Shown here: one piece after another, positions 6,655 through 47,161 of the stretch
How positions within the stretch are numbered: position 1 is the stretch's first letter
Layout of the letters: every line of letters begins with the position of its first letter
Source: Dehalococcoidia bacterium
GTDB taxonomy: Bacteria > Chloroflexota > Dehalococcoidia > DSTF01 > JACRBR01
Assembly: GCA_041494685.1 (NCBI GenBank)
Contig: JBGQBE010000016.1
Location: forward strand, 1 to 56,380
Reading direction: 5' to 3'
Length of the DNA: 56,380 nt
Translations under genes and position numbers: made by a program
Notes under the pieces: generated by a model
Told to the model about the DNA's origin: nothing
Databases searched by the model: none
The model's input: only the letters and a program-made list of their open reading frames with translations

Positions 6655-6702
6655 GGGCCATTCCGGTGTCGATCGGCCCCGACTCCGGGGCCAAATGGCC
6701 CT
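6655..6702. promoter_or_regulatory. Tandem DosR/OsdR-like operator boxes
   Basis: GGTGTCGATCGGCCCC (6665-6680) and GGGGCCAAATGGCCCT (6687-6702); 6655-6679 reverse complement matches 47119-47143 at 23/25. Confidence 0.65.
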
Positions 6703-6769
6703 GCGAGTCCGGAGCGCGTTCGCGCGATGATGCTTGAAACCGAACGGGCGCAGGACAGGAGGCACGGCG

Positions 6770-7141
6770 ATGGTGCGGCAGTCAGAAGAGACCCTGGTCA
6801 CGATGACGGAGCGGGCGCAGACGAAGATGATGAGCCTGATGCGCGACCGCGGACTCGAACAACCGGAGTTGCGTGTGTTCGTCGCCGGCGGCGGCTGTTC
6901 CGGCTACCAGTACGGCATGTCGATCGCGGAGGGACGTCAGCAGAACGACATCATCGTCAGCCAGGGCGACCTGACGCTGCTCATCGACCCCGACAGCGCC
7001 CCGCTCGTGCGCGGTGCAGAGATCGACTACATCGACGACGTCATGCAGTCGGGATTCGCGATCAACAACCCGAACGCGCCGGCATCGGGCGGCTGCTCCT
7101 GCTCCGCGAACGGCGGCGAAGGCCCGCCAACCTGCTGCTAG
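6770..7141 (+). CDS. A-type Fe-S carrier (HesB/IscA/ErpA family)
   Basis: LRVFVAGGGCSGYQY, GAEIDY, F.INNPNA...CSC; AGGAGG RBS before ATG 6770. Confidence 0.92.
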   Translation: MVRQSEETLVTMTERAQTKMMSLMRDRGLEQPELRVFVAGGGCSGYQYGMSIAEGRQQNDIIVSQGDLTLLIDPDSAPLVRGAEIDYIDDVMQSGFAINNPNAPASGGCSCSANGGEGPPTCC

Positions 7142-7158
7142 GGAGCGAGGCCGACACG

Positions 7159-8082
7159 GTACACCGAGAAGACGTCACGTTCATCAGCGGCGGCGAGCCT
7201 ATCGCCGCCTGGTTCTATCACGCGCCGAGTGATGAACGGGCCCCGTGCGTCGTGGTGGCGCACGGCTTCGCGGGCGTGAAGGAAGCGCGGCTGGACGCGT
7301 TCGCGGAGCGCTTCGCGGCCGCCGGCATGGCGTGCCTCGTGTTCGATTACCGCCACTTCGGCGGAAGCGGCGGCGAGCCGCGGCAGCTCGTGGACATCAA
7401 GCACCAACGCGAAGACTGGCGAGCGGCGCTGCAATACGCACGTTCGCGCCCCACCGTCGACGCGCAGGCGATCGGCTTGTGGGGGACGTCGTTCGGCGGT
7501 GGCCACGTACTCGAACTCGCCGCGCGCGATCCGGAGATCAAAGCCGCCGTGCTCCATCTCCCGCTCGTCGACGCGCTGGCGACGGGCCGGCACGAAGGCT
7601 TCATCCCGACGGCGAAGCTCGTGTGGTGCGGCTTCCGCGACCTGTTCCGGGCACTCACCCGGCGGCCGCCGTACTTCATCCCCGTCGTCGCCCCGCCGGG
7701 CTCCCTCGCCTTCATGAGCACGCCCGAGGCGCAGCCGGGGTACTTCGCGATCGTGACGGACGCGCCCACCTGGAGGAACGAGGTCGCCGCCCGCATCGTG
7801 ATCGAGATGGCGCTCTTCCGCCCGATCGCCAGCGCTGAGCGGGCGCGCTGCCCGCTGCTGTTCGTCGTGGGCGAGAAGGACTCGATTACGCCGACCGACG
7901 TCACGCTCAAGGCGGCGCGCGACGCGCCGAACGCGCACGTGATCTCCCTTCCGGGCGGCCACTTCGACGCCTACCTGGGCGAGCAGTTCGAACGGGCGGT
8001 CAGCACCGAAGCCGCATTCTTCGCGGAGCACCTGCTGGGCGCGGCAGCGCGGCCGGAAGCCGGCAGCACAGCAGCAATCTAG
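7159..8082 (+). CDS. Alpha/beta hydrolase (start codon uncertain)
   Basis: AHGF, FDYRHFGGSGG, GTSFGG nucleophile elbow, GEKD and GGHF; the apparent N-terminus starts at a GTA codon. Confidence 0.82.
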   Translation, partial: VHREDVTFISGGEPIAAWFYHAPSDERAPCVVVAHGFAGVKEARLDAFAERFAAAGMACLVFDYRHFGGSGGEPRQLVDIKHQREDWRAALQYARSRPTVDAQAIGLWGTSFGGGHVLELAARDPEIKAAVLHLPLVDALATGRHEGFIPTAKLVWCGFRDLFRALTRRPPYFIPVVAPPGSLAFMSTPEAQPGYFAIVTDAPTWRNEVAARIVIEMALFRPIASAERARCPLLFVVGEKDSITPTDVTLKAARDAPNAHVISLPGGHFDAYLGEQFERAVSTEAAFFAEHLLGAAARPEAGSTAAI

Positions 8083-8116
8083 CGATCCTCAGCGCACGTG
8101 AGGATTGGCGCCGGCA

Positions 8117-8941
8117 TTACGCTTCCCTGATCTCGAACAGCCACGCCGCCAGGGCCACGGGGACGACGATCCACGCGGCCAGCGCGACGCTGAGGATTGC
8201 GGTCGCGCCGCCGGTGCCGGCGCGCTCCATCACGTACGAGCCGAACGGGCCGAGGATCTGCAGGTCGGGCTCGAGATGGATGATCGCGAGCACGCGCACG
8301 ATCTCGACCGGGTTGGCCAGCAACGCCAGCATGAGTCCGCCTCCCCCGAGCGAGGTGGCCGAGACCATGCCGATGAGCAGCAGGTCGAACACGAACACGA
8401 ACACGAACCAGATCATCAGCGCGAAGCCGAGTGCCTGCACGCGCGTGCCCGAGATCACTGACGCGACCAGACCCAGGCCGGTCATCACACAGACGAGCGC
8501 AAGCACCAGGACGATGAGCAGGAGGTACGTGCCGACATCAAGCGTGGAGGCGAAGAAGGCGATGAAGACGCCCGCCGCGCCGAACCCCGCCACCGTCGCC
8601 AGCGCGATCGACGCGCTCAGGCCGGCGAACTTGCCGGCGAGCAGCTCCCAGCGGTCCAGCGGTTGCGACAGCAGGTACGTCAGCGCGCCACGGTCGCGCT
8701 CGCCCGCGATCGCTCCGGCGCCGAGCGACAGCGCCGCCAGTGGCGCGAGGAGCAGGCAGAGGTTGAGGACGCTGGCCGTCGTACGGCTGAAGTTCTCGAA
8801 GCCGACGCTGCCGAGGTTCCGCTCTCCCAGGTACGACAGCGCGAGCGCGAGCACCGTGAAGAGCGCGGCATAGAGGATCAGCCACGAGCTGTTGACGGCG
8901 TCGCGCAGCTCCTTGCGGGCGACGGCGAGCACCACGCTCAC
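8117..8941 (-). CDS. nosY: Copper ABC transporter permease for N2O reductase maturation
   Basis: ABC-2 permease (AGERDRGALTYLLSQP, LANPVE) at the end of the nos operon; GTGA overlap with nosF. Confidence 0.88.
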   Translation of the reverse strand: MSVVLAVARKELRDAVNSSWLILYAALFTVLALALSYLGERNLGSVGFENFSRTTASVLNLCLLLAPLAALSLGAGAIAGERDRGALTYLLSQPLDRWELLAGKFAGLSASIALATVAGFGAAGVFIAFFASTLDVGTYLLLIVLVLALVCVMTGLGLVASVISGTRVQALGFALMIWFVFVFVFDLLLIGMVSATSLGGGGLMLALLANPVEIVRVLAIIHLEPDLQILGPFGSYVMERAGTGGATAILSVALAAWIVVPVALAAWLFEIREA

Positions 8942-9828
8942 GGCTGCACCTGCCCCTCGTCCCCACGCGCCTGCGCCGTCGCCAGCAGGATCTCCTCCCA
9001 GCGAAGCTCGGCCTTCTGGACGTTCTCGGGGCCGACGCCCGCGGCTCGCAGCGCCTCGATGAACGCCGCCGGCGCGTTGCCGTTGAGGTTGACCACGTAG
9101 CGGCTGCCGTGCGCGCGCTGCGCAAGGTCGTCGAGTGAGCCGTCGAACGCCAGGCGTCCCTCGTGCAGGATCAGCGCGCGGTCCGCGACCTCGTCGAGGT
9201 GATCGAGGAAGTGCGTCGAGAGGATCACCGTCTTCCCCTGGTCGCGGAGCCGTACGATCAGTTCCTGCAGGCCACGGCGGCTCTCGACGTCGAGGCTCGC
9301 CGTCGGCTCGTCGAGCAGCAGCAACGGCGGGTCCGCGAGCAGGGCGGCCGCCAGCGCCAGCCGCTGCCGCATGCCTCCGGAGAGGTGGCCGACCTTCGTC
9401 GCCGTTTGCGGCGCGAGGTTCACGAGTTCGAGCAGCTCAAGCACCCGCCCCTTCGCGACGCCCTTGATCTCGGCAAGGAACGCGAGCGCCTGGGCGCAGG
9501 TGTCGCCCTCGCTCAGCGCGGGCGACTGCGGCACGTAGCCGATGCGGCGGCGCGCGTCTTTGCCGTGGCCGCGCACCGAGATGCCCGCGACCTCTACGGC
9601 GCCGTCAAATCCGACGACGCCCAGGATGCACTTGAGCGTCGTCGTCTTCCCCGCGCCGTTCGCGCCGAGCAGCGCGACGACGCTGCCGGCCCGCACGTCG
9701 AATGTCACGTCGTCCAGCACTCGCGTGCGGCCGTACCGCTTGCTGAGGCCGGCGACGCGAAGGATGGATGCTGTCCCGTCCTGCGCCACGCTGGTGCACC
9801 CTTCGTTATCCCGTCGGAGCAGCGCCAT
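8938..9828 (-). CDS. nosF: ABC transporter ATPase
   Basis: GANGAGKTT, LSGGMRQR and LLLDEPT motifs; lies between nosD and nosY (alternative GTG start at 9789). Confidence 0.88.
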   Translation of the reverse strand: MALLRRDNEGCTSVAQDGTASILRVAGLSKRYGRTRVLDDVTFDVRAGSVVALLGANGAGKTTTLKCILGVVGFDGAVEVAGISVRGHGKDARRRIGYVPQSPALSEGDTCAQALAFLAEIKGVAKGRVLELLELVNLAPQTATKVGHLSGGMRQRLALAAALLADPPLLLLDEPTASLDVESRRGLQELIVRLRDQGKTVILSTHFLDHLDEVADRALILHEGRLAFDGSLDDLAQRAHGSRYVVNLNGNAPAAFIEALRAAGVGPENVQKAELRWEEILLATAQARGDEGQVQP

Positions 9829-11331
9829 CTATGCGGGCGCCTCGCCCGGGCGCCGGCCGCGCTTCCCCACTCCCAGCATACGCCGAAGGAGGCGGCCCGC
9901 GTCAACGGACGCGAAGCGGATGGCCGCGAAGGACGACAGTACGACGAGCAGCACGCTCACTCCCAGCAGGCGGACATTGATCCCGCCGCCATGCGACAGC
10001 GCGAGGCCCGGAGGCGGCTCCATGAGCGGATTGCTGTCCTCGATCACCGGGTTGTACCTGTAGACGGGGAACATGTCGGTCGCCGCGTCGATGGCCTGCT
10101 GGGCGGGCGTAAACTGGAACAGCCGCAGCATCTCCTGGTTACCCAGACGGCCCGCGAATGGCGGGCGCGGCTGGTACGGCTGGTCGCCCACGCCGTCGCC
10201 GTTCGCGTCAAAGCCGCGATAGTCGCTCCAGTAATTGCCGCGACCGGCGCTCGTCCACACGGCCGCCTTCAATAGCTGGGGCGTACCGCCTGCCGGCTGT
10301 GCGCCCGCGGGCGTGGCGCCATCGTGGCTGGACAGCGCGCTGGCCAGTTCGCCGCTGAGCGCCTTGACCTGCACTGTGTTGTCGATCATCGCGTTCTCGA
10401 CGAAGGTGATCGGGGCGTTCGAGAACAGCCCCAATCCGGTGTCGTTGAGCGCGAAGGTATTGCGGCGGAAGATCGCGGTCGCGCCGGCCTGCTGCGGCGT
10501 GCCATCGACGGTCATGCCGAACTTGTTGCGCAGGATGCGGTTGCCTTCGACCCAGATATTGTTGTCGTCCTTGATCAGCATGCCGGCGCCGCTCGCACCA
10601 CTGCGGTTGTTGGAGAACTCGTTGTCCTTGACGATCAGATCGTTCGAATACATGAGCACGGCGCCGGCGAGGTTTCCGCGAAACGTGTTGCTGATCACCT
10701 TGTTGTCGCTCGCGTACATGAAGTGCAGCGCGTAGCGGCTGTCGGTGACCGTGTTCTTGCCGAGACCGTTCCGGTCGGAGTACTCCATGTGGATGCCGTC
10801 GGCGGCGTGGCGGATCGTATTCCCGTACAGCGTCGAGCCGGTCACTTCCCACAGATACACGCCGTGCCCGCGCCGCTCGATCGGCGTATCGCCCCCGGTG
10901 TCGATGACGTTGCCGTCGATCAGGTCGTCGGCGCTGTCCGTGATGTGCACGCCGAAATGCGCATCCGCCAGGTGATTGGCGCGGATCGTCACCCGTTTCG
11001 CGCCATCGACCTTGATCGCCGCCGGCTCCTGCGACACGTTCTTGCTGCTGCCGCGGATCGTGAACCCTGAGATCACAACGTCATCGGCGGAGATAGTCAC
11101 GACGTCGCCCTGACCGCCTCCATCGATGACAGGCGAGTTGCGCCCGATCAACGAGATCGACTTGTTGATCACAATCGATTCCCGGAACACGCCGCCGTCC
11201 ACGATGACGATGTCCTCGGGAGCCGCTCGATCGACGCGCTGCTGCAGCGACAGCCCCGCGTCTTGCGCCCGCACCGGCGTGGCGAAGTGCATCGCCGCCC
11301 CGCAAAGCAGGAGGACGAGGAGCAGCCTCAC
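9829..11331 (-). CDS. nosD: N2O reductase maturation protein (beta-helix) with C-terminal membrane anchor
   Basis: Signal peptide, RRGHGVYLW, SRYALHFMY and GNYWSDYRGFDANGDGVGDQPY; GTG 11331 overlaps the upstream stop. Confidence 0.93.
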   Translation of the reverse strand: MRLLLVLLLCGAAMHFATPVRAQDAGLSLQQRVDRAAPEDIVIVDGGVFRESIVINKSISLIGRNSPVIDGGGQGDVVTISADDVVISGFTIRGSSKNVSQEPAAIKVDGAKRVTIRANHLADAHFGVHITDSADDLIDGNVIDTGGDTPIERRGHGVYLWEVTGSTLYGNTIRHAADGIHMEYSDRNGLGKNTVTDSRYALHFMYASDNKVISNTFRGNLAGAVLMYSNDLIVKDNEFSNNRSGASGAGMLIKDDNNIWVEGNRILRNKFGMTVDGTPQQAGATAIFRRNTFALNDTGLGLFSNAPITFVENAMIDNTVQVKALSGELASALSSHDGATPAGAQPAGGTPQLLKAAVWTSAGRGNYWSDYRGFDANGDGVGDQPYQPRPPFAGRLGNQEMLRLFQFTPAQQAIDAATDMFPVYRYNPVIEDSNPLMEPPPGLALSHGGGINVRLLGVSVLLVVLSSFAAIRFASVDAGRLLRRMLGVGKRGRRPGEAPA

Positions 11332-12008
11332 GCCACGCTCCGTCGCTGGCCGGCGTCGCCCCTGGCGGGGGCGCCGGTCCCGGCGCCACGCACTGTTGCG
11401 CGCGCGCGGCGGCGCTGCCACCAGCCGACAGCGAGCGGGACGACCGTGATCTCGATCGCCGCGGCGAGCATCAGGTAGAACCCAAGCTCGAAGCCGGTGT
11501 TCGAATGGAAGTTCCACACCTTCGTCGTTCCCATCACCTTCGGCGTGAAGGAGCCGGTGTTCAGCGGTGCCTCCGGATTCATCGTGTGTCCGTAATGGTA
11601 CAGCCAGAACTGAAGGTCCACTACGAAGAACACCGGCATCGTCCAGAATCCGAGTATAAGCAGTGCTCGCAGCCACCGGCGCTTCCAGGAGACGAACGAC
11701 CCAATCAGCGTACCGGCGATGAGCGCCAGCACACCCGGGATGAAGAGGCTCATCTCGGCCACCTTTTCGATCGGCTTCATCCCGATGTAGTGGTTCAGGC
11801 CGTTGATCTCGCGGACGTCGTCGTAGTACGTGTTGGGGTCGCCGACGAACTTGTAGCCATAGGCTCTCATGACCAGCCCGGCGGGGTACTGCGGCGCCAC
11901 CAACTCCATCCGCCACAGAGGCACGAACAGTGCTCCGAGCAGGAGCCCGCAGGCGATGACGGAGGCGATGAGCCACGACTTCTCGGGGCGTCCAAACAAT
12001 CCGCTCAT
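11328..12008 (-). CDS. nosB: Clade II nos membrane protein
   Basis: PLW...APQYP.GL, EINGLNHYIGMKPI and WLYHYGH motifs, about four hydrophobic segments, directly downstream of nosZ; GGAGG RBS. Confidence 0.85.
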   Translation of the reverse strand: MSGLFGRPEKSWLIASVIACGLLLGALFVPLWRMELVAPQYPAGLVMRAYGYKFVGDPNTYYDDVREINGLNHYIGMKPIEKVAEMSLFIPGVLALIAGTLIGSFVSWKRRWLRALLILGFWTMPVFFVVDLQFWLYHYGHTMNPEAPLNTGSFTPKVMGTTKVWNFHSNTGFELGFYLMLAAAIEITVVPLAVGWWQRRRARATVRGAGTGAPARGDAGQRRSVA

Positions 12009-12100
12009 CGCATCATCCTCCTTTCCCGGAACGGGCGCTCCCGCGGCGATCAGCCGCGGGAGCGCCACAATCTTCACAACCCTCCGTCGACTCGTATCGG

Positions 12101-14146
12101 CTAACCCCCGGGCGCCGCTACCCCCGACGCCGCCGGCTCGACGAGCAGCCAGCCCGCCATCTCCAGGTGCAGCGCCGAACAGAACTCGGTGCAGTAGAAG
12201 TTATACGAGCCTGCCTTATCGGCGACGAAGTCGAAGTTCTCCGTGACTCCCGGTTCCAGGCTGGCGTTGATGTTGTACTGGGAGATGCCAAAGCCGTGGG
12301 TCGCGTCCTCGGTCTGCTCGATGTTGGTGATGTGGATCTTCACGTGGTCGCCCTGCTTCACGCGGATGATGTCCGGCGTGAAGTGGCTGCGCTGCGCTGT
12401 CATCCACACCTCGACAGTGTTGCCGTCACGGACGGTCTTCTCCCCGCCGAACTTGATCGCGAACGGGCTGGTCTGCATCGTCTGCAAGTCGGTGCCTGGC
12501 GGGTAGACGGGAATCGCCTTCAGCCTGGACGCCTTCATGATTTCCGCGTAGTGCGGCTCCCCGATGCCAATCGGTGTGTCGGAGATCAGATCCATGGGGC
12601 CGTTGCCGCCATTGAGGTCAATGAGCTGGAGATCTTGCGGGTGCAGCGGTCCGATGGTCTGGAAGCGGTCGATCGACCACTTGTTGAGCGCCACGAGGTA
12701 CTTGGAATCGGGGTGCTCGGTGTCGCCCTCCGTGACAGCCAGGTGGCCGATGTTGTAGTTCACGGGGATGGTCTGGATCAGGCTGAATGGCTTTTCTCCG
12801 GTCTTGACAACGTCGTCGCCCAGTGTGAACTTCGCGACGGCGCTCGCCAGGAACATGCTGGTGTAACCGTGGCCCATGCCGTCGAACTGCGTGTGCAGCG
12901 GGCCGGCGCCCACTTCGACCTGCGCCGCGACGACGGAGTCGAACTTGAGCACGTGGATGCCGAACACGTCGTCCTTTTCGTAGTCCTTGCTCTCGATGGC
13001 TTTCTGGATCTTGTTGAAGTCGAAGATCGTCACGTGCGGGTCAAGCTTGCCGCCGACGACGATGTAGCGGCCCGACGGGTCGACGTCCGCGCCGTGCGGG
13101 CTCTTCGGCTCCGGGATCAGGTAGAGCAGGCCCTCGTCCACCGCGGTCTTCATCGAAATCACGGGGATGCCGTTCATCATCGGGGCCTTGCCGGCCTTGA
13201 CGACTTCCGCGGCCTTCTTCCAGTTGATGATGTGCAGGTAGTCGAAGTTGTTCTTCGACATGCCTGCCTCCATCGGCTGGCCGCCCTCCGCATCGCCGCC
13301 GGTCGCCATCTCGCTGTTGTAGGAGCCGATGAAGCCCCAGCCGTCGCTCACCAGCTTACCGGCGTCGGCGAGGTCCTGGTTGTACGGCGGCAGCTCGATC
13401 TCGAAGCTCTGTGAGAGGTCGAGCTTACCAGTCGTCTGGTCGATCTTGAGCCACGCGGACGCGCTGCGGAATTTCGCCTGATAGTCCTTCAGGTCGGCGT
13501 AGGTGCCGGGAGGCCACGGCTCCGGGTACGTCGCCGAAACGTGGACATAGTCCGAATTCGGCGTGACGAACATCCCGCCGTGCGACGTCTGGATATTCGG
13601 CACCGCCAGGATCTGCTTCGTGGTGAAGTCACGCAGGTCGACCATACCGACACGGCCGTTCGCGCGGTCGTTGATGTACAGGAACCGCCCGTCGTAGTCG
13701 CCGTTCGTCTCGCTCAGGGCCGGGTGGTGCGTGTCGCCCCACGTGAGGTCTACATTTGCCGGGACCGTTGGGTTACCGTTCTTGAGGATCGTGTCGCCGG
13801 CATCGGCGCCGTACCCATAGCCCTGCCACGACTCTGGCGTGAAGACCGCAATCGACTTCAAGATGCGCATCGATGGGACGCCGAGGACGAGCACCTGGCC
13901 GCCCTGGCCGTCCGACGAGAACATGACGTATTCGTCCTTCTTGCCCGGCGGAACGAACTGCTGGAGGGCGTGCTTCATGTCCTCCGGGGTCAGCCCACGC
14001 TCCTTCGCGACCGCGTCAAGATCGGCGCTGCCGGTCGACGCGGTGTTCTTGCTCTTGCTGCTGCTACAGCCGACGCTCGCCGCAACGACGAGCAGCGCCG
14101 CACCTACAACCATCAGCATCCGTACCGATGTCCGAGACAACTTCAT
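12101..14146 (-). CDS. nosZ: Nitrous oxide reductase, clade II, Sec/lipoprotein type
   Basis: CuZ histidines (GDTHHP, TSHG, SPHG, GPLHT, IGH, GEPH) and CuA motif YCTEFCSALHLEM; no twin-arginine motif; SVGC lipobox-like site. Confidence 0.97.
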   Translation of the reverse strand: MKLSRTSVRMLMVVGAALLVVAASVGCSSSKSKNTASTGSADLDAVAKERGLTPEDMKHALQQFVPPGKKDEYVMFSSDGQGGQVLVLGVPSMRILKSIAVFTPESWQGYGYGADAGDTILKNGNPTVPANVDLTWGDTHHPALSETNGDYDGRFLYINDRANGRVGMVDLRDFTTKQILAVPNIQTSHGGMFVTPNSDYVHVSATYPEPWPPGTYADLKDYQAKFRSASAWLKIDQTTGKLDLSQSFEIELPPYNQDLADAGKLVSDGWGFIGSYNSEMATGGDAEGGQPMEAGMSKNNFDYLHIINWKKAAEVVKAGKAPMMNGIPVISMKTAVDEGLLYLIPEPKSPHGADVDPSGRYIVVGGKLDPHVTIFDFNKIQKAIESKDYEKDDVFGIHVLKFDSVVAAQVEVGAGPLHTQFDGMGHGYTSMFLASAVAKFTLGDDVVKTGEKPFSLIQTIPVNYNIGHLAVTEGDTEHPDSKYLVALNKWSIDRFQTIGPLHPQDLQLIDLNGGNGPMDLISDTPIGIGEPHYAEIMKASRLKAIPVYPPGTDLQTMQTSPFAIKFGGEKTVRDGNTVEVWMTAQRSHFTPDIIRVKQGDHVKIHITNIEQTEDATHGFGISQYNINASLEPGVTENFDFVADKAGSYNFYCTEFCSALHLEMAGWLLVEPAASGVAAPGG

Positions 14147-14242
14147 GGCCACAGACCTCCCCTACTAGCCCGATAGGGCTACGCGCTCATTGCGGCATGA
14201 TCGCCATTCTCCTGCAACAGCTGTAAGAGCCTGACGCCCCTC

Positions 14243-14260
14243 TTGTGAGGCGTTTCGCAA
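14243..14260. promoter_or_regulatory. Putative Rex operator upstream of nosZ
   Basis: TTGTGAG-GCGT-TTCGCAA versus Rex consensus TTGTGAA-N4-TTCACAA (12/14). Confidence 0.55.
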
Positions 14261-14367
14261 TCACCGAACAGGCCGAATGGCACATGATCTGCACACCCAG
14301 CGGTCGAGGTCGAGAGCCCGTTCCGTACTGCCCCGCCCGTGTCACCACGCGACCCGACGCTCCGCAA

Positions 14368-14383
14368 AGGGCCGATCGTCCCC
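14368..14383. promoter_or_regulatory. DosR/OsdR-like box in the nosZ/cupredoxin divergent promoter
   Basis: AGGGCCGATCGTCCCC, 14/16 to AGGGCCGATCGGCCCT; weaker copy CAGGCCGAATGGCACA at 14269-14284. Confidence 0.65.
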
Positions 14384-14489
14384 ACTCAAACCGGCCGTTG
14401 GCCTCGGGCCCCTGAGTCCGCGATGGGCTAAGTAATAGGGACGTGAAGGGGTTCGCTCTCACCGGCCGGGCATACATGCGAGGAGCACC

Positions 14490-15029
14490 ATGCAGAGTTC
14501 TCTCAAACGATGGGCCTGGCTGGGACTCGGCGTCGTCGGCCTCGCCGCGGCGGCGAATGCGGCCTGCGGGCAGGCTGGTACGTATGAGAAGACCCCCACA
14601 CCCGGTGCGCCACCCCCAGCGGCGACGAAACCGGCGACTACGCCCGCCGCCACGGCGGCGGCAACCGGGGCTGCCGCGACGCCGTCGGCCGCCTCGCCCA
14701 CGCAGGCTGCCGCAACCACGGCCACGGCCGGTGGCGGCGGCGAGGCCACAACGCTGACACTCGTCGCGAAGAACACCCTCTTCGACAAGAGCGAGTTGAA
14801 GGCGAAGGCCGGCGCGGTGACGATCGAAGTCGATAACCAGGATGGCGGTATCCCGCACAACCTCCATGTCTACAGGGGGAAGGACAATACGGGGGAAGAT
14901 ATGGGAAAGACGGAGATCGCAGCCGGTCCCGTAAAGCAGACGCTCAAGCTTCAACTGACGGCTGGCGAGTACTTCTTCGTCTGCGAGGTCCACCCTCCGA
15001 CGATGTTCGGCAAACTCGAAGTCGAGTAG
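14490..15029 (+). CDS. Exported (probable lipoprotein) type-1 copper cupredoxin with Ala/Thr/Pro linker
   Basis: Signal peptide ending AAC; PHN...YFFVCEVHPPTMFG supplies His/Cys/His/Met ligands. Confidence 0.88.
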   Translation: MQSSLKRWAWLGLGVVGLAAAANAACGQAGTYEKTPTPGAPPPAATKPATTPAATAAATGAAATPSAASPTQAAATTATAGGGGEATTLTLVAKNTLFDKSELKAKAGAVTIEVDNQDGGIPHNLHVYRGKDNTGEDMGKTEIAAGPVKQTLKLQLTAGEYFFVCEVHPPTMFGKLEVE

Positions 15030-15063
15030 CGATGTTGCGCGCGGCGCAGCGGGAGGGGCAAGC

Positions 15064-17877
15064 ATGGTGACGAAGCGCGCAGCGATCGGAGCGGACGGCC
15101 GGGCCGTCACGGAAGCACGGTACGGCGAGTCGTTGGCGTTCGACCGCTGGGGCTGGGGCAGCCACTGTGTCGACTGTTATCCGAGTAACTGCCCGTACCG
15201 CGTGTACGTGAAGGACGGCGTCATCGTCCGGGAGGAGCAGGCCGGCACCTTCCCAACGATCGAACCCGGCGTGCCCGACATGAACCCGATGGGCTGCCAG
15301 AAGGGCGGCTCGTGGAGCCGCCTGCTGTACGGCGGCGAGCGCGTCCTGCACCCGCTGCGGCGCGCGGGCGAGCGCGGCGAAGGCAAATGGCAGCAGATCT
15401 CGTGGGACGAGGCGCTGACCGACATCGCCGAAGCCATGCTCGACACGATGCAGGCGGAGGGGCCCGAGAGCATCATGCGCATCGGCACGCCGGGACAGGG
15501 CGGCACGCAGAGCATCGCGCTGGCGGGCGCCGTGTTCAACAAGCTGGGCTGCACGCTCACCGACGTGCAGGGCGAGATCAACGACTGGAGCCCGGGGCTC
15601 TACGTGACGTTCGGCCGCTTCGACCCCTGCGCGAGCGACGACGACTGGTTCCACTCCGAGGTCATCCTGATCTGGGCGAACAACCCCGCCTACAGCGAGA
15701 TCCCGCTGGCCCACTACATCAGCGAAGCGCGCTACAAGGGCGCGCAGGTCGTGATCATCGCGCCGGACTACAGCCCGTCCGCGATCCACGCCGACCTCTT
15801 CGTCCCGGTACGCATCGGCAGCGACGCCGCATTGGCACTCGCGATGTGCCAGGTGATCCTCGAAGAGGGATTGATGGACCGAGCGTTCGTCCGCGAGCAG
15901 ACGGACCTGCCGCTGCTCGTCCGCACGGACACGGGGCGCTTCCTGCGGCAGCAAGACGTGGCGGAGGGCGGCCGCGACGACATCTTCTACATGTTCGATA
16001 AGCAGACGCAGCAGATCGTCGAAGCACCGCGCAGGCTCGACCTCGGCAAGATCGTGCCGGCGCTGCACGGATCGTTCACGGCGACGCTCGCGGGCGGCGA
16101 TTCCGTCGCCGTCGAGCCTGTGTTCGTACGCCTCGAGCGGACACTGCGGGACTACACACCCGAGGCGGCGTCCGCGACGTGCGGCGCCCACCCGGACGTC
16201 ATCCGCCAGCTCGCCCGTATGGTGGCCGCGAAGAAGACGCACGTGCTCGACGGCTGGACTTTCGGCAAGTCCTACCACGGCGACCTGATGGAGCGCGCGA
16301 TCTGCCTGGTGCTGGCGCTCACGGGCAACTGGGGCAAGCAGGGCGCCGGCATCCGAAGCTGGGCCGTCGGCATGTTCGACGGCATGTTCACCTGGTCATC
16401 GAAGGCCGCACCGGGCCCGGAGGCCGCACGCGCTCTCAACGAGGGACTGAACGCGATGGCGGCGGGTGTGAAGGCGCAGGATCCCTCGCTGACGGACGAG
16501 ATCCTCGTGCATGAGATGGGCTATCGCGGTGCGGCGATGGGCGGCAACGTCCCGCCGGCGTTCTTCTGGCTCAACCATTGCGGCTACCGCGAGACGTGGG
16601 AGAAGGAGGGCTGGGGCGACCCCGATATGAAGCGCCCCTTCTCCACGTACGTGCAGGAGGCGATCGACCGCGGCTGGTGGCAGGGCTCACAGTACCCGCT
16701 TCCGGACAAACCGCCGCGCGTGCTGTTCGAGATCGGCGGCAACATGCTGCGCCGAACGCGCGGCGGCCAGCAGCAACTGCTCACTCACCTCTGGCCGAAG
16801 CTGAAACTGATCGTCTCCATGGACGTGCGGATGACGACGACGGGCATGTGGTCGGACATCGTGCTGCCGTCGGCGCATCACTACGAGAAGCCGAATTTCC
16901 CGTACACGACCCCGAACGTGATGAACCTGACGCTCTCCGACCGCATCGTGGCGCCGCCAGCGGACACCCGGAGCGAATGGCAGTTCGCGCTGGCGCTCGC
17001 ACGCAAGCTCTCCGAGCGCGCCGTCGCCCGCGGCTTCGTCGAATTCAAGTCGCGGCTGGGGATGCCGGTGCGGCTCGACAACCTGTACGAGCAGCTATCC
17101 CGTGACGGCTTCTACGCGGAAGACGAAACGGTGATCAACGAGATGGTCGTCGATTCCGCCGTCGCGGGAACACTGCCTGCCGGCACGACCCTGGAATCGC
17201 TGCGCGAGACCGGCTACGTGCGCTTCACCGGCTGGGGCCGTTCGCCGATGGCGCTGGCGCAGGCGTCGGATTTGAAGCCGAACGAGACGCATGCACCCTT
17301 CCGCTGGCAGACCGAGAAGAAGGAGCCGTTCCCGACGCTGACGCGCCGCGCGCAGTTCTACGTCGACCACGACTGGTTCCTGGAAGCGGGCGAAGAGCTG
17401 CCGGTCCACAAGGAACCGCCGGCGCAGGGCGGCGACTATCCGCTGGAGCTCACGGGCGGGCACCCGCGCTGGAGCGTCAACTCAACCAACATGACAAACC
17501 GCATCATCCTCAACGCGCAGCGGGGCGGCCCGACCGCCTATATCAACGACGCCGACGCGGCCGCGCGCGGCATCGCCGACGGCGACCAGATGCGCGTGCA
17601 CAACGACGCCTCGGAGGCGTTCGTCGAGGCGCGCGTGACGCCGTCCGTCCGGCCCGGCCAGATCATCATGTACAACGGGTTCGAGCCGTACCAGCACGAA
17701 GGTTGGCGCGATACGTCGAACGTCGAGCCGGGCATGGTGAAGTGGCTGCACTTCGCCGGGGGCTACGGGCACCTGCGGTACCGCGCGCTGCACTGGCAAC
17801 CCGTGCCGATCGACCGCGGCGTCCGGGTGGATATCGAGAAGCGCGTCCGGACGGAGGCGTCAACAGAGGAGGAGTGA
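15064..17877 (+). CDS. Mo-bisPGD oxidoreductase alpha subunit 1 (DMSOR type II, EbdA-like), no Tat signal
   Basis: GSHCVDCYPSNC, REEQ, NPMGCQKG, EIND (probable Asp Mo ligand), TLTRRAQFY.DHDWF and GGYGHL. Confidence 0.92.
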   Translation: MVTKRAAIGADGRAVTEARYGESLAFDRWGWGSHCVDCYPSNCPYRVYVKDGVIVREEQAGTFPTIEPGVPDMNPMGCQKGGSWSRLLYGGERVLHPLRRAGERGEGKWQQISWDEALTDIAEAMLDTMQAEGPESIMRIGTPGQGGTQSIALAGAVFNKLGCTLTDVQGEINDWSPGLYVTFGRFDPCASDDDWFHSEVILIWANNPAYSEIPLAHYISEARYKGAQVVIIAPDYSPSAIHADLFVPVRIGSDAALALAMCQVILEEGLMDRAFVREQTDLPLLVRTDTGRFLRQQDVAEGGRDDIFYMFDKQTQQIVEAPRRLDLGKIVPALHGSFTATLAGGDSVAVEPVFVRLERTLRDYTPEAASATCGAHPDVIRQLARMVAAKKTHVLDGWTFGKSYHGDLMERAICLVLALTGNWGKQGAGIRSWAVGMFDGMFTWSSKAAPGPEAARALNEGLNAMAAGVKAQDPSLTDEILVHEMGYRGAAMGGNVPPAFFWLNHCGYRETWEKEGWGDPDMKRPFSTYVQEAIDRGWWQGSQYPLPDKPPRVLFEIGGNMLRRTRGGQQQLLTHLWPKLKLIVSMDVRMTTTGMWSDIVLPSAHHYEKPNFPYTTPNVMNLTLSDRIVAPPADTRSEWQFALALARKLSERAVARGFVEFKSRLGMPVRLDNLYEQLSRDGFYAEDETVINEMVVDSAVAGTLPAGTTLESLRETGYVRFTGWGRSPMALAQASDLKPNETHAPFRWQTEKKEPFPTLTRRAQFYVDHDWFLEAGEELPVHKEPPAQGGDYPLELTGGHPRWSVNSTNMTNRIILNAQRGGPTAYINDADAAARGIADGDQMRVHNDASEAFVEARVTPSVRPGQIIMYNGFEPYQHEGWRDTSNVEPGMVKWLHFAGGYGHLRYRALHWQPVPIDRGVRVDIEKRVRTEASTEEE

Positions 17878-17879
17878 TC

Positions 17880-18302
17880 GTGCCCAAGAAGGACATCCCC
17901 CAGCCATTCCAGGACTTCACGCGCGACTTCCCCGCCGTCGCGCGGGCATACGAAGCGCTCGGCTCCGCGAGCCACGACGCGGGGCCGCTCGACGACCGCA
18001 CCCGCCGCCTCGTGAAGCTGGCGATCGCGGTGGGCGGCCGCCTTGAGGGCGCCGTGCGCGCGCAGGCCCGGCTCGCGCAGCAAGCCGGGATCTCGCGTGC
18101 GGAGCTCGATCACGTAGCACTGCTCGCGATCACCACGGCCGGCTTGCCGTCGGCGGTCTCCGCGCGAACCTGGATCCGCGACGAGATCGGGGCGCCCGCG
18201 CCGAAAGCCGCGCTGCGGAGCAAACCCGCGCGCAAGGCGAAGGCCCGCGCTGCCGCCCCCGTCCGCCGCGCCGGCGGCGCCGCAAAGGCCCGCCGCTCCT
18301 GA
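17880..18302 (+). CDS. Carboxymuconolactone decarboxylase / AhpD-like protein with basic tail
   Basis: GPLDDRTRRLVKLAIAVG...AGISRAELDHVALLAITTAGLP; GTG start after GAGGAGG. Confidence 0.82.
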   Translation: MPKKDIPQPFQDFTRDFPAVARAYEALGSASHDAGPLDDRTRRLVKLAIAVGGRLEGAVRAQARLAQQAGISRAELDHVALLAITTAGLPSAVSARTWIRDEIGAPAPKAALRSKPARKAKARAAAPVRRAGGAAKARRS

Positions 18303-21236: not shown

Positions 21237-21296
21237 GTCATGCCTCCCACGGGAGGCCGGGTGCGACCACTGTGCGGCCACCCGCGCACCGCGACA

Positions 21297-21377
21297 AGGG
21301 CCGTAACGCCGGTCGCGGGGGCCGAATGGCCTGTCCACATGCCGTCGGCTGGCTGAGTAGCCGCGACGATCGGCCCT
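21297..21377. promoter_or_regulatory. Cluster of DosR/OsdR-like boxes in a divergent promoter
   Basis: GGGGCCGAATGGCCTG (21318-21333), CGCGACGATCGGCCCT (21362-21377) and weaker AGGGCCGTAACGCCGG (21297-21312). Confidence 0.6.
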
Positions 21378-42504: not shown

Positions 42505-43938
42505 GTGCCGTTGAACAGGGAGGATTCGAGACAGAGCGACACGGGGCGGTCCGGGTCCGCACTCGCGGACCACGACCTTCCGATTAACCGCGCATTGCGC
42601 CAGCTCCGCCGCATGACGATGGTCGTGCCGTTGCTGTTCATCGCGGTGCTGGAGGTCGCCGTTCACCTGGTGATCGGCGACCGGATCCCGCGTGTGACCG
42701 CGGTGCTGCTGATCTTCGTCCTCGTTGCCGGCGGCTCGGCCGTGTTCTCGCTGCTCGTCTTCCACTTCCTGAAGCGCATCCAGGATCGCCTCATCCAACG
42801 GAACCGCCAGATTGCCGCCGTCCACAGCGCCGGCCTGTCGCTGGCGTCCGAGATGACGCTCGAACCCCTGTTGCGCAAGTTCGTCGGCCTGGCGTGCGAG
42901 ATCACCAACGCGAAGTACGGGGCACTCGGCATCACCGGCGCCGATGGGCGACTGGAGCGCCTGATCACCTCCGGCCTCAGCGATGACGAACGCACCAACA
43001 TCGGCCCAACTCCGGACGGACACGGGCTCCTCGGTCTGATGATCGGCGAGGGCGCCACCCTCCGGATGAAGGATCTCACGCAGGATCCGCGCTCTGTGGG
43101 CTTCCCGCCCCACCACCCGTCCATGCGCACGCTCCTCGGGGTGCCGGTCGTATACAAGGACAACATCGTCGGCCACCTGTACCTGGGCGATAAGCAGGGC
43201 GCGGACGAATTCAGCCGCGAAGACGAGGAGATGGTGCAACTGTTCGCCGCGCAGGCGGCGGTGTCGATCGAGGCAGCCCGCCTGCTGGAGCGGTCGCAAG
43301 ACCTCGCCATCCTGGAGGAGCGCGAGCGGATCGGCATGGATCTGCATGACGGCGTGATCCAGACGCTGTACGGCGTCGGACTGAACCTGGAAGACTGCGC
43401 CGCGTCCGTGGCCACCGAACCGGACGCCGTGGCGGATCGGCTCGACAAGACGGTCAACGACCTCAATCAGGTCATCAAGAACATCCGCGGCTACATCTTC
43501 CATCTGCGGCCTGCGGAGTATGGCGCCGGCACGCTGACCGATGCGCTGCGTGACCTCGCGGAAGAGGTGCACGTGAACTCGCTCATCGACGTGGAGGTCG
43601 ACACGGATGACGTCGACACGTCGCAGCTGCCCAAGCCCGTGGCCGAGAACCTCTTCCACATCGCGCAGGAGGCGCTGGCCAACGTGTCGAAGCACTCCCG
43701 CGCGACGCGAGCCTGGATCCGGCTGCGCTCAGACGGCAACATCCTCGCGCTGGCGATCCGCGACAACGGCCGTGGCTTCGAACCCGCGTCGTCGGCCGGC
43801 GTCGGGCATCGCGGACTCGGCAACATCGCCGACCGCGCCCGGGCCATCGGCGGCGCCCTGGAAATGACGAGCACAACCGGCATCGGCACGACCATTTGTG
43901 TCGATGTTCCGCTTGAGCGGGAGCAGTCCCATGTCTGA
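42505..43938 (+). CDS. Membrane GAF-domain histidine kinase, DosS/DevS-like
   Basis: Two TM helices; GAF segment GLLG...DPRSVGFPPHHPSMRTLLGVP; ERERIGMDLHD, QEALANV and DNGRGF. Confidence 0.9.
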   Translation: MPLNREDSRQSDTGRSGSALADHDLPINRALRQLRRMTMVVPLLFIAVLEVAVHLVIGDRIPRVTAVLLIFVLVAGGSAVFSLLVFHFLKRIQDRLIQRNRQIAAVHSAGLSLASEMTLEPLLRKFVGLACEITNAKYGALGITGADGRLERLITSGLSDDERTNIGPTPDGHGLLGLMIGEGATLRMKDLTQDPRSVGFPPHHPSMRTLLGVPVVYKDNIVGHLYLGDKQGADEFSREDEEMVQLFAAQAAVSIEAARLLERSQDLAILEERERIGMDLHDGVIQTLYGVGLNLEDCAASVATEPDAVADRLDKTVNDLNQVIKNIRGYIFHLRPAEYGAGTLTDALRDLAEEVHVNSLIDVEVDTDDVDTSQLPKPVAENLFHIAQEALANVSKHSRATRAWIRLRSDGNILALAIRDNGRGFEPASSAGVGHRGLGNIADRARAIGGALEMTSTTGIGTTICVDVPLEREQSHV

Positions 43939-44581
43939 CCAGATCCGCGTCCTGATCGTCGATGAGCACGAGATCGTCCGCGAGGGCTTGCGGGCCGTAC
44001 TGGGGCGCCGGCCGGGCTTCTGCGTGGTCGGCGAGGCCTCCTCCATCGCCGACGCCGTCGAAGAGGTCACCCGCACCACTCCCGATGTCGTCCTGATGGA
44101 TGTGCATCTCGGAGATGCGTCCGGTGTCGACGCCTGCCGCTCCATCCACGAGCACTCACCGCAGGTCAAGATCATCATGCTCACCCCCCACGCGGATGAC
44201 GATCTGGTCATGGACTCGATCCTTGCCGGCGCGTCCGGCTTCATCCTCCAGCGCGTGAGCGGTGACGCGCTCCTGGACGCCATCGCCAGCGTTGCCGCGG
44301 GCGGCTTCCTGCTGGACCCCGTCGTCACGTCGCACGTGCTCGACCGGCTCCGCGCGGTCGGCACCCGGCGAGAAGATCAAATGGATCCCCTGTCGTCACA
44401 GGAACGGCGCGTACTGGCGCTGATCGCGGAAGGGAAGACAAATCGGGAGATCGCCGCCGCGATCGGCCTGAGCGAGAAGACGGTCAAGAACTACGTCAGC
44501 AGCATCCTCAACAAGCTCAGAATGCACCGCCGGTCGGAGGCCGCGGCGTTCGTCGCGCGACAGACAGCTCGCGACGAGTGA
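43931..44581 (+). CDS. NarL/LuxR response regulator, DosR/DevR-like
   Basis: Receiver domain (LMD) and HTH GKTNREIA...SEKTVKNYVS.IL.KL.M.RR. Confidence 0.92.
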   Translation: MSDQIRVLIVDEHEIVREGLRAVLGRRPGFCVVGEASSIADAVEEVTRTTPDVVLMDVHLGDASGVDACRSIHEHSPQVKIIMLTPHADDDLVMDSILAGASGFILQRVSGDALLDAIASVAAGGFLLDPVVTSHVLDRLRAVGTRREDQMDPLSSQERRVLALIAEGKTNREIAAAIGLSEKTVKNYVSSILNKLRMHRRSEAAAFVARQTARDE

Positions 44582-45531: not shown

Positions 45532-45676
45532 GCCGCCTCCAATCTCTGCGTAAGGCTACGGCTCGACGCCGAATCCCCGGTAGGTACACTCGGCCCCATC
45601 GGTGGTGACACTTGGGGTCGCGCACGGCGCCGCCTGGCACGCGAGCCTCTCCGGCGTCGCCTGTCAACATCGTATC

Positions 45677-45692
45677 CCGGCCGTTCGGCCCT
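45677..45692. promoter_or_regulatory. DosR/OsdR-like box
   Basis: CCGGCCGTTCGGCCCT in a divergent intergenic region. Confidence 0.5.
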
Positions 45693-45727
45693 CCCGCCAC
45701 GGCCCTGTTCCGCTGACAATACCGGAG

Positions 45728-47023
45728 ATGTCAACCGACGAGGCAAGGGTCGTGGTGCCCGCCGTCCGGCGCTCACCGGTGCGCGCACTCCGCCACCGCG
45801 ACTACTCCCTGATGTGGCTCGGCATCCTCTTCGGCAGCGCCCTCGTCCCCATGCAGTTCGTCACACAGATCCTCTTCCTCTCCGAGCACAGCGGCGAAAG
45901 TTCACGCCTCGTGCTCTCCGGCCTCCTTGGCGCCGCGCGCGGTGCCGCCATGCTCACGTTCAGCCTGTTCGGCGGCGCGCTCGCCGATCGCTTCGACCGC
46001 CGCCGTCTGCTCATGGTGTCGCAGTCGCTCGGCCTCCTGACCGGCGCCGCCATCGCGGCCGTCATGCTCACGACGCCAGGCGGCCAGACGCTTACGCTCT
46101 CGCTGTTCATCGCGCTCATCTTCGTGGGCGCGGGGCTCGGTTCGATCGACAGCCCGACCCGCCTCTCGATGGTCCCGGAGCTCGTCGGGCGCGAGGACCT
46201 CCCCAACGCCATCGCGCTCGACGCCGTCGCGTTCCAGCTCGGGTTTCCGCTGGGCCTGCCGCTCACCGGCGTGCTCATCGACCACATCGGGTTCGGATGG
46301 ACCTACGTGGTCACGCTGGGTGCCTACGCGTCGCTCATCATCACCGTGGCGCTCATGAAGTACCGGCCCCCGCGCCGGACGGGCTACCTCCGCGCGTCGC
46401 TGCTCGCCGATATCCGCTTCGGGGTCTCGTACGCCCGCAACCGACCCGCGGTGCTGTGGATCATCGCCATCTCCTTCGCGATCAGCGGCCTGGGGCTGCC
46501 CGTAGTGGCGAATCTCGGGCCCGTCTGGACGAGTCGCGTGCTCGGGCTCTCCCCCACCGGCGTCGGCCTTCTCGCCATGACGTGGGGCGTCGGCTCCATG
46601 GTGGCCTCGCTCGTCATGACCAACGTCGGGCACTTCAAGGCCAAGGGATATCTCGTGATCTGCGCGGCCGCCGGGTTCGCCGCGTGCGTCGTGCTGTTCG
46701 GCTACTCGCGGATCATCCCGCTCAGCGCCGTCATCAACCTTGGCCTCGGCAGCATGCTCACGGTCTCAGGCGTCGCATCGACGTCGCTCGTGCAGCGCAT
46801 GGTCCACAACGATGTCCAGGGCCGCGTGATGAGCCTGTTCATGATGAGCCAGGGAGTCTCTCAACTGCTGACCTTGCCGATCGGCGGCTTTGCCCAATGG
46901 GCGACGCTCCAACTCACGATGCCGCTCATGGGCTGGATCAGCCTGGCGACGGTCGCGGTCATAGCGCTGACGCAACCGGCGCTCCGCAACGCCGGACGCC
47001 AGGGCCCGGCGGCCGACCCGTGA
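45728..47023 (+). CDS. MFS transporter
   Basis: GGALADRFDRRRLL motif A, 12 hydrophobic segments and QGRVMS. Confidence 0.92.
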   Translation: MSTDEARVVVPAVRRSPVRALRHRDYSLMWLGILFGSALVPMQFVTQILFLSEHSGESSRLVLSGLLGAARGAAMLTFSLFGGALADRFDRRRLLMVSQSLGLLTGAAIAAVMLTTPGGQTLTLSLFIALIFVGAGLGSIDSPTRLSMVPELVGREDLPNAIALDAVAFQLGFPLGLPLTGVLIDHIGFGWTYVVTLGAYASLIITVALMKYRPPRRTGYLRASLLADIRFGVSYARNRPAVLWIIAISFAISGLGLPVVANLGPVWTSRVLGLSPTGVGLLAMTWGVGSMVASLVMTNVGHFKAKGYLVICAAAGFAACVVLFGYSRIIPLSAVINLGLGSMLTVSGVASTSLVQRMVHNDVQGRVMSLFMMSQGVSQLLTLPIGGFAQWATLQLTMPLMGWISLATVAVIALTQPALRNAGRQGPAADP

Positions 47024-47094
47024 CGCCGGCCGCGACGGACGGCGAATCCGCACTCGATACACGCTCATCCCCTGCTGGCTGCCACCGCCACCCT

Positions 47095-47161
47095 CGGGCC
47101 ATAAGACCCCACGACTCCGGGCCGATCGACACCAGAACGGCCCCTCCGGACGGTCTACAGT
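47095..47161 (+). promoter_or_regulatory. DosR/OsdR-like boxes plus putative -10 (TACAGT)
   Basis: CGGGCCATAAGACCCC and CGGGCCGATCGACACC; same layout as the 6637-6702 element on the minus strand. Confidence 0.62.

Follow-up and report, generated by a model that had tools for sequence, protein, structure and literature searches.

Genes and palindromic boxes of the respiratory island

The stretch of DNA analysed here, referred to as the window, is a whole contig (C16, 56,380 nucleotides) of a draft genome (G000) of 3.29 Mb in 87 contigs, with 68% guanine plus cytosine (GC). Pfam and NCBIfam scans revealed a respiratory island in the window, and six of the gaps between its genes contain 16-nt palindromes resembling GGGCC-N4-GGCCC, ten in all. 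We consider it probable that these boxes are the sites of a DosR/DevR/OsdR-type response regulator and that they define an anaerobic-respiration regulon.

The island includes a nitrous oxide reductase gene (nosZ) with accessory nos genes, two cupredoxin genes and genes for five alpha subunits of the type II dimethyl sulfoxide (DMSO)-reductase family, named Mo1 to Mo5. The window also encodes EB_dh haem subunits, Fer4_11 subunits, a NarJ-like chaperone, MobA, MobB-FmdE, MoaA and an Opp-type ABC transporter, as well as a sensor kinase and a response regulator. The nine nearest named nosZ loci are labelled Chloroflexota (8/9) or Acidimicrobiia (1/9), and the nearest Atlas clusters of the kinase are mostly Chloroflexota (a lead only); because of these labels, the host is probably a member of the Chloroflexota and not an actinobacterium. 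A comparison of the named metagenome contigs with the coded relatives yielded no match at or above 97% identity longer than 500 bp. The genes referred to in the text are the following.

4865-6595, minus strand: thiamine pyrophosphate (TPP)-enzyme gene
6770-7141, plus strand: ErpA-like Fe-S carrier gene, with a hydrolase gene in the same plus-strand group
8117-12077, minus strand: an unknown gene, then nosD, nosF and nosY, 3' of nosZ
12101-14152, minus strand: nosZ, clade II, Sec-dependent type (TIGR04246, 771.6 bits against a cut-off of 625)
14490-15029, plus strand: cupredoxin 1
15064-17877, plus strand: Mo1
18420-21236, minus strand: Mo2 (start ATG 21236)
21416 onward, plus strand: mobB-fmdE / EB_dh / NarJ-like operon
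24318-27128, minus strand: Mo3 (start ATG 27128)
27394-30264, plus strand: Mo4
32208-35123, plus strand: Mo5
42595-43938, plus strand: sensor kinase with two hydrophobic N-terminal segments, one DosT/DevS-like GAF domain, HisKA_3 and HATPase_c (start possibly 42505)
43931-44581, plus strand: NarL/GerE-family response regulator of the DevR/DosR type (Response_reg and GerE domains)
45728-47023, plus strand: MFS_3 transporter (start ATG 45728)
47210-48241, plus strand: cupredoxin 2

The ten palindromes had been listed in a first-pass annotation made from the sequence alone. All of them were found at the positions that it gave, and all are intergenic, in six gaps (6596-6769, 14153-14489, 21237-21415, 27129-27393, 45532-45727 and 47024-47209). 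Two seemed to lie inside long open frames, but a Shine-Dalgarno-like sequence accompanies each of the likely starts of Mo2, Mo3 and the transporter gene (ATG 21236, 27128 and 45728), and with these corrected starts the boxes fall outside the genes. Divergent genes flank five of the six gaps. The boxes and the elements near them are listed below, with scores from a symmetrised matrix built from the ten sites.

6665-6680: box GGTGTCGATCGGCCCC, score 16.2, proximal for the TPP-enzyme gene (minus) and distal for the erpA-like gene (plus)
6687-6702: box GGGGCCAAATGGCCCT, score 18.2, proximal for the erpA-like/hydrolase genes (plus) and distal for the TPP-enzyme gene
6726-6731, plus strand: -10-like GATGAT for box 6687, read by eye
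14244-14259: CRP-like box TGTGAGGCGTTTCGCA, between box 14269 and the -10-like TACAGC of nosZ (14225-14220, minus strand)
14269-14284: box CAGGCCGAATGGCACA, score 12.7, in a distal-type position for nosZ (minus)
14368-14383: box AGGGCCGATCGTCCCC, score 17.3, two mismatches to the OsdR consensus, upstream of cupredoxin 1 and Mo1 (plus)
21297-21312: degenerate secondary box AGGGCCGTAACGCCGG, spotted by eye and low-scoring in the matrix, proximal for Mo2 (minus) and 21 bp away from box 21318
21318-21333: box GGGGCCGAATGGCCTG, score 15.6, distal for Mo2 (minus)
21362-21377: box CGCGACGATCGGCCCT, score 13.6, proximal for the mobB-fmdE / EB_dh / NarJ-like operon (plus)
21401-21406, plus strand: -10-like GATAGT for box 21362, with the ATG at 21416
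27171-27166, minus strand: -10-like GATAAT for box 27195
27195-27210: box AGGGCCACACGGCCCC, score 14.2, proximal for Mo3 (minus)
45677-45692: box CCGGCCGTTCGGCCCT, score 14.4, proximal for the MFS_3 transporter gene (plus)
45715-45720, plus strand: -10-like GACAAT for box 45677, with the ATG at 45728
47095-47110: box CGGGCCATAAGACCCC, score 13.2, distal for cupredoxin 2 (plus)
47118-47133: box CGGGCCGATCGACACC, score 15.8, proximal for cupredoxin 2 (plus)
47176-47191: extra candidate box AGGGCCGGTCAGCCGT, which differs from the OsdR consensus at three positions and lies past the predicted -10 element

Two candidates in this list, 47176-47191 and the degenerate 21297-21312, were added to the original ten, among which 14269, 21318 and 47095 are the weaker sites (at least five mismatches to the OsdR consensus). 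Boxes 6665 and 6687 make up a divergent pair with a spacing of 22 bp. Of the -10-like hexamers near the boxes of the window, only two fit TANNNT strictly: TACTGT (6642-6637, minus strand), which starts 31 nt from the centre of box 6665, and TACAGT (47156-47161), which starts 31 nt from the centre of box 47118. Boxes 21318, 14368 and 14269 are at the distal distance from -10-like elements.

Placement, promoter geometry and conservation of the box

The OsdR site that the first-pass annotation had named is exactly the published consensus, AGGGCCGATCGGCCCT (Urem et al. 2016, PMC5069765), which was used as an a priori query, independent of the window. The caution that high GC content favours chance matches was justified, since the loose pattern GGGCC-N4-GGCCC with up to two mismatches is not enriched in the window (89 matches against 93.8 +/- 10.2 in shuffles). 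With the OsdR consensus at up to four mismatches, 8 intergenic and 3 coding matches were found in the window, which is 9.2% intergenic; at up to three mismatches, the genome outside the window contained 23 intergenic and 9 coding matches, with an intergenic fraction of 16.7% according to approximate gene calls. Eight of the genome's 90 intergenic matches (up to four mismatches) lie within the window, which is 1.7% of the DNA and has the highest box density in the genome.

The matrix was scanned over the genome minus the window, with 200 palindromic matrices of permuted half-site columns as controls. At scores of at least 14 it found 15 intergenic and 12 coding matches, the permuted means being 4.2 and 32.7, and none of the 200 controls reached 15; at scores of at least 12 it found 43 and 61, with permuted means of 18.2 and 139.6, and one control in 200 reached 43. 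The comparison of intergenic with coding DNA, proposed in the first-pass annotation as a check, thus gave an enrichment both for the consensus and for the matrix against its controls: the motif is enriched between genes and avoided within them, and its placement is highly non-random. Among the 16 gaps of at least 50 bp in the window, the maximum matrix score was 14.2-18.2 in six and at most 8.0 in the other ten, a contrast and not a proof, as the matrix was trained on those six gaps. Two positions of the half-site do not vary among the ten sites (20/20 each in symmetrised counts); they correspond to G5 and C7, the two bases of every half-site that DevR needs for binding (PMC3177182).

The distance to putative promoters was examined for the intergenic sites scoring at least 12, oriented to each flanking gene read away from the box (64 flanks). 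A TANNNT hexamer started 31-32 nt from the box centre in 10/64 flanks and 53-54 nt from it in 7/64, with a mean of 0.25 per position elsewhere; random intergenic positions gave 0.0058 per flank per position. The same spacing was found outside the window (8/46 flanks at 31-32 nt and 5/46 at 53-54 nt), and box pairs 20-23 bp apart recur in the genome. If the hexamer starts at -12, the box centres would be at about -42.5/-43.5 and -64.5, and transcription from the proximal boxes would be predicted to begin near 6630 (minus), 6738 (plus), 21413 (plus), 27159 (minus), 45727 (plus) and 47168 (plus). Tandem Dev boxes are described as a hallmark of every DevR promoter, and those of tgs1-Rv3131 in Mycobacterium tuberculosis are at -42.5 and -63.5, on one helical phase (Chauhan et al. 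2011, PMC3177182). In the MFS_3 and mobB-fmdE promoters the ATG is only 8-10 nt past the -10-like hexamer (45715-45730 and 21401-21418), which suggests that these mRNAs are leaderless or nearly so.

The box is also conserved upstream of nosZ in other genomes. The nosZ gene was present in 8 of the 41 genomes searched, G000 included, and a box scoring at least 11 was found about 60-400 bp upstream of it in all six relatives with upstream DNA (G010, G024, G009, G029, G035 and G008), which span three coded families; for loci L056 and L057 only the gene's 3' part is available. Ten of the 11 matches scoring at least 10 in the loci of these six relatives fall in the stretches upstream of nosZ. Nine more distant nosZ loci from named metagenome-assembled genomes (MAGs), seven of which include the 5' end, were also inspected. 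A box at -104 to -141 was found in three of the seven (L064, L067 and L068) and the nearest box in L066 is at -694, while no box was found upstream of nosZ in the other three, namely L062, L069 and the Acidimicrobiia locus L070. When all palindromes of 5-mer half-sites separated by 2-6 nt were enumerated blindly in 13 foreign nosZ upstream regions, the top pattern was GGGCC-N4-GGCCC, present in 8/13 with at most one mismatch; the next pattern at that spacer reached 3, and the maxima of 20 shuffles were 2-6. Locus L054 (G035) contains three near-identical boxes (A/GAGGCCGNCTGGCCCT) at 3704, 3839 and 3947, 108-135 bp apart, in repeat-like sequence upstream of nosZ, which may be a tandemly duplicated promoter module.

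A second type of site is found in the nosZ promoter. The CRP-like box (TGTGA/TGCGA-N6-TCACA) is conserved at nosZ in three genomes, namely those of the window, G024 (L051) and G008 (L055), and its spacing to the TAC... element, 18-19 nt, is kept in all three. TGTGA-N6-TCACA was also found in 4/13 foreign nosZ upstream regions. Genome-wide, with at most one mismatch, there were 12 intergenic and 7 coding matches, and the scrambled controls varied widely (AGTGT 6/3, TTGGA 4/1 and GTTGA 12/92). The sole Crp/Fnr-family protein of the genome is encoded on contig C8 (L061:1060-1728) and is closest to GlxR and to the mycobacterial and Thermus CRP proteins; its helix-turn-helix sequence REVVAR presumably corresponds to the CRP-like pattern for TGTGA. 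The nosZ gene may therefore be co-controlled, with a CRP-like site in the proximal and a DosR-type box in the distal position.

Candidate regulators and predicted regulon

The regulator encoded in the window has DevR as its best solved match (3c3w, E 4.6e-49, 169.9 bits; VraR 126.4 and NarL 105.6 bits), and by these scores it is closer to DevR than to the other solved NarL-family members tested. The match of its helix EKTVKNYVS to DosR, claimed in the first-pass annotation, was borne out by the alignment to 3c3w, in which the DevR helix is identical; we take the two Lys and the Asn of EKTVKNY to be the DNA-contact residues of DevR. The receiver Asp of VLMDVHL aligns with the DevR Asp in AVLDVRL, and the phospho-receiver Asp of DevR is D54 (PMC3029386). 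No NCBIfam model scored above its cut-off for the regulator or the kinase, the best for the regulator being MadR (161 bits against 300).

The GAF domain of the kinase matches DosT GAF-A (2vzw, 1.2e-36) and DevS (5.2e-31) and is about half identical to them. It retains the haem-His segment, as the same annotation had proposed, with His aligned on His (HHPSM against YHPPM/HHPPM; alignments to 2vzw and 2y8h/2w3d), and a Tyr is aligned at the distal position (HLYLGDK against TLYLTDK); we assume that these are the equivalents of the proximal His149 and distal Tyr171 of DevS. The N-terminus has two stretches with Kyte-Doolittle values above 1.6, and a single GAF domain is present, not a tandem GAF-A/GAF-B; the same holds for the paralogue described next.

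A second pair is encoded on contig C27, with the kinase at C27:33543-34892 and the regulator at C27:34889-35530. Among the 14 NarL-type regulators of the genome, only these two contain KTVKNYVS. The C27 regulator is 56-57% identical to that of the window, with an identical helix (KTVKNYVSSILNKL), and its kinase has the same build as the window kinase, with 43% identity and a GFPPHHPPM segment. Regulator matches at the C27 level of identity (~53-58%) were found in most of the 41 genomes. Copies clearly like that of the window were found only in G004 (73%), G002 and G019 (62%, syntenic), the two types having been told apart by identity, plus synteny for G002 and G019; the gene calls around the G008 regulator (L073) are unreliable, and G021 enters as one row of the relatives' tallies. 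Both G002 and G019 keep the order SBP_bac_5, kinase, regulator beside acyl-CoA dehydrogenase, CoA-transferase and nitroreductase genes, and the same region holds a molybdoenzyme gene in G019 and a Fer4_11 subunit gene in G002. The nosZ box is kept in G010, G024, G009, G029 and G035, where the best regulator match is 53-58%. Because nosZ boxes persist without a window-like copy, the conserved (C27-type) pair would have to be able to use them, and with identical helices both regulators probably bind the boxes.

The predicted regulon extends beyond the window. Of the genome's 11 molybdoenzyme operons, 6 have a box scoring at least 12 (2/6 for those that lie outside the window); among 1801 operon heads the share is 2.6%. 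The sites elsewhere in the genome are as follows.

C15:14209 and C15:30455: boxes flanking two more molybdoenzyme operons
C15:21057/21079 (tandem), C30:18207 and C30:19505: boxes flanking two nitroreductases with acyl-CoA dehydrogenases; those at C15:21057/21079 and C30:19505 adjoin the two nitroreductase genes
C15:53869: box flanking hemA and radical-SAM genes
C18:20023: box, score 16.7, before a NIR_SIR nitrite/sulfite reductase gene and behind a cupredoxin gene
C10:54333/54417: boxes at a second, paralogous MFS_3 gene
C10:56132 and C22:21525: boxes upstream of two CsoR-type copper repressor operons

The predicted output is anaerobic respiration and its cofactors (Cu, Mo, haem and Fe-S), not a set of 'dormancy' genes rich in universal stress protein (USP) genes. 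One of the CsoR-type operons includes an HMA protein gene and the other a cupredoxin gene, and the boxes before them hint at a link between this switch and the provision of copper to NosZ and the cupredoxins. The region C18:18632-21826 (L015) forms a second small redox module, with a NarL-type regulator of different helix, a cupredoxin, a strong box and NIR_SIR. Two boxes that score among the best of the genome have no obvious target: C67:690 (score 18.9) is 310 and 431 bp from the flanking genes, and C46:12661 (score 16.7) is between convergent genes.

Other features of the window concern the molybdoenzymes and a stretch near its end. Inspection of the N-termini (at 15064, 21236, 27128, 27394 and 32208) revealed that only Mo5 opens with a twin-arginine signal (RRTFLK), while Mo1-Mo4 show none; EB_dh-type haem subunits, which are usually periplasmic, are encoded beside these signal-less subunits. 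An N-terminal cluster motif, H/C-x-x-C-x3-4-C, is present in all five. A stretch of 1.9 kb (51505-53414) has no gene call by the codon-usage caller, and its open reading frames have no Pfam match; an RHS-repeat protein is encoded next, at 54530.

Alternative readings and comparison with known systems

In the mechanism that we propose, a membrane-anchored kinase with a haem-type GAF domain would be active at low O2 or with nitric oxide (NO) or CO bound, and would phosphorylate the NarL-family regulator, a dimer of which would bind the 16-bp box AGGGCCGATCGGCCCT. One box would have its centre ~42.5 nt before the transcription start, taking the place of a -35 element, often with a helper box two helical turns further upstream, and the regulator would switch on sigma-A-type promoters. 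The predicted targets in the window are nosZ, the two cupredoxins, four molybdoenzymes with maturation genes, the ErpA-like carrier, the TPP enzyme and the MFS transporter; elsewhere they would be more molybdoenzymes, nitroreductases, haem synthesis, nitrite/sulfite reductase and copper homeostasis. The sequences directly show the motif, where it lies, how it is conserved and to which families the proteins belong; which of the two regulators would bind, the signal sensed, and activation rather than repression are predicted from sequence.

Several observations weigh against this mechanism. No box was found upstream of the local kinase-regulator operon (the best score upstream of 42595 was 1.6) or before Mo5 (2.9 upstream of 32208), no intergenic match scoring at least 9.5 and no autoregulatory box were found around the C27 pair, and five molybdoenzyme operons besides Mo5 were counted as boxless. 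Among ten USP genes none had a box scoring at least 11 (best 10.6), so that the classic 'dormancy' content is missing. L062 and L069, two of the closest named nosZ loci, are boxless in the available upstream DNA. As two regulators share one helix, the local one may not be the binder. The predicted -10 elements GATGAT, GACAAT, GATAAT, GATAGT, CACAGT and TACAGC were chosen by eye once the spacing had been established, and some matrix matches with GTGNC half-sites, such as GGTGACATTCGGCACT, look CRP-like. The gene calls were home-made, with starts often too far downstream, which inflates the intergenic fraction; the 16.7% being an overestimate, the placement test is conservative in that respect. 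Finally, the region 12101-18000 was found only in DNA runs of sediment metagenomes, and no RNA runs were listed.

The first-pass annotation had proposed that a dormancy-type O2/NO sensor controls nosZ and the molybdoenzymes in place of FNR/DNR. The boxes before nosZ and before four of the five molybdoenzyme genes of the window are in line with such control, which has to be narrowed for Mo5 and for the regulator's own operon, both boxless, and the local pair is not the sole candidate. A search of the Crp/Fnr family found no FNR- or DNR-type sensor in the genome, as that claim supposed, but the CRP-like box at nosZ makes the wording 'in place of' too strong.

Among the alternatives, the one with most in its favour, although we still regard it as unlikely, is that the boxes are read mainly by the widely conserved C27 pair, the local pair being a duplicate peculiar to its lineage, whose role would be narrower, overlapping or different. 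The identical helix of the C27 regulator, its own GAF kinase, its wide distribution and the persistence of the nosZ box beside matches of its level all fit this view. Against it, the window has the highest box density, with the local pair inside that island, and the local pair is syntenic with the Opp-type transporter, molybdoenzyme and nitroreductase genes in G002 and G019; moreover, identical helices predict binding by both regulators. It is improbable that the boxes are operators for repression or dual action instead of class-II-type activator sites: NarL-family regulators are known to repress in some cases, and the extra candidate at 47176-47191 is downstream of a predicted -10, but the sharp peak at 31-32 nt before TANNNT, with a helper box ~22 bp upstream and no separate -35 element noticed or sought, is the activating layout of DevR (PMC3177182).

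Binding by a protein of another family, for instance the single CRP/GlxR-like protein, would account for the matches with GTGNC half-sites, given that the frame GTG-N8-CAC has the same spacing and that the genome encodes a CRP-type protein. We consider this very improbable, since the half-site GGGCC always has C at a position where CRP sites favour no base, the OsdR consensus is matched exactly, and a separate TGTGA-N6-TCACA-like box stands beside the OsdR-like box at nosZ. The reading to which we give least credence is that GC-rich palindromes arose here by chance, or that the sites are hairpins or terminator stems, with no regulatory role in either case. The lack of enrichment of the loose pattern in the window and the strong site between convergent genes at C46:12661 would agree with it, but not the intergenic enrichment and coding depletion relative to permuted matrices, the fixed distance to -10 elements, the conservation upstream of nosZ across families, or the position of five of the six window regions between divergent genes. 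Sites of a DosR/DevR/OsdR-type regulator thus remain our preferred reading of the boxes.

A broader proposal is more tentative, and we hold it to be possible rather than probable: among uncultured Chloroflexota, over a broad group of them, N2O respiration by clade II NosZ and a whole set of type II DMSO-reductase-family enzymes would be under the master control of a haem-based system of the DosRS type, and not of Crp/Fnr. This system would have been duplicated into two membrane-anchored pairs that read one box, and the box would work together with a site of the cyclic AMP (cAMP)-CRP type at nosZ. If so, two gas/redox signals could converge on one promoter set, and the clade II nosZ of the Chloroflexota would gain its first proposed regulator. 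No biological sink for the greenhouse gas N2O other than NosZ is known, and little has been established about how bacteria outside the Proteobacteria turn on clade II nosZ. A literature search of limited scope found no paper linking DosR/DevR to nosZ or to Chloroflexota. For sediment Chloroflexota, the boxes offer a regulatory hypothesis that can be tested, and as a sequence tag they would help to predict which genes these uncultured organisms turn on as oxygen falls.

The clade I denitrifiers offer a first comparison. Their nos genes are controlled by the Crp/Fnr proteins DNR, NNR and FnrP, which respond to O2/NO through haem or Fe-S and whose site overlaps the -35 element. The predicted system is similar in its logic, a haem/Fe-S O2/NO signal that switches on nosZ, and differs in the protein family and in the box.

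The resemblance to the DevR/DevS/DosT system of M. tuberculosis is closer. The recognition helix is identical, the kinase GAF is about half identical to the GAF-A domains of DosT and DevS, the G and C of each half-site are invariant, and nitroreductase genes are among the predicted targets. The mycobacterial DevS and DosT kinases are soluble and have two GAF domains, whereas the kinase described here has one GAF domain and two hydrophobic N-terminal segments. The half-site is GGGCC here and GGGAC for DevR; two complete kinase-regulator pairs are present here, unlike the two kinases that feed one regulator in the DevR system; and the predicted regulon serves respiration, in contrast to a USP/HspX 'dormancy' set, with no autoregulatory box found. 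In both systems the boxes are in tandem and on one helical phase, with centres implied near -42.5/-64.5 here and at -42.5/-63.5 for DevR (PMC3177182).

The OsdK/OsdR pair of Streptomyces coelicolor (SCO0203/SCO0204) shares the same 16-nt palindromic consensus, consists likewise of a sensor kinase and a NarL-family regulator, and has its boxes clustered in an island around the regulator; OsdR also binds DevR targets (PMC5069765). This likeness is one of box and layout; at the protein level the regulator of the window was compared with DevR. Targets in anaerobic respiration are also common to both, nitrate reductase subunits being named among those shared by OsdR and DevR (PMC5069765). OsdR differs in having a box at -81 before its own gene and boxes before many USP genes (PMC5069765), neither of which was seen here, and the predicted targets in the present case comprise nosZ, cupredoxins and type II DMSO-reductase-family enzymes, in a phylum that is probably Chloroflexota.

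Compared feature by feature, the window system lacks the tandem GAF, shows no sign of autoregulation, and shares with DevRS and OsdKR most of the features tested, namely the box, the geometry, the helix and the haem-pocket residues. The mechanism itself is not new; what the window contributes is nosZ as a predicted target, together with the matching regulator pairs, outside the Actinobacteria. The DosR/OsdR system, box included, would thus extend past the Actinobacteria with an almost unchanged box sequence and promoter geometry.

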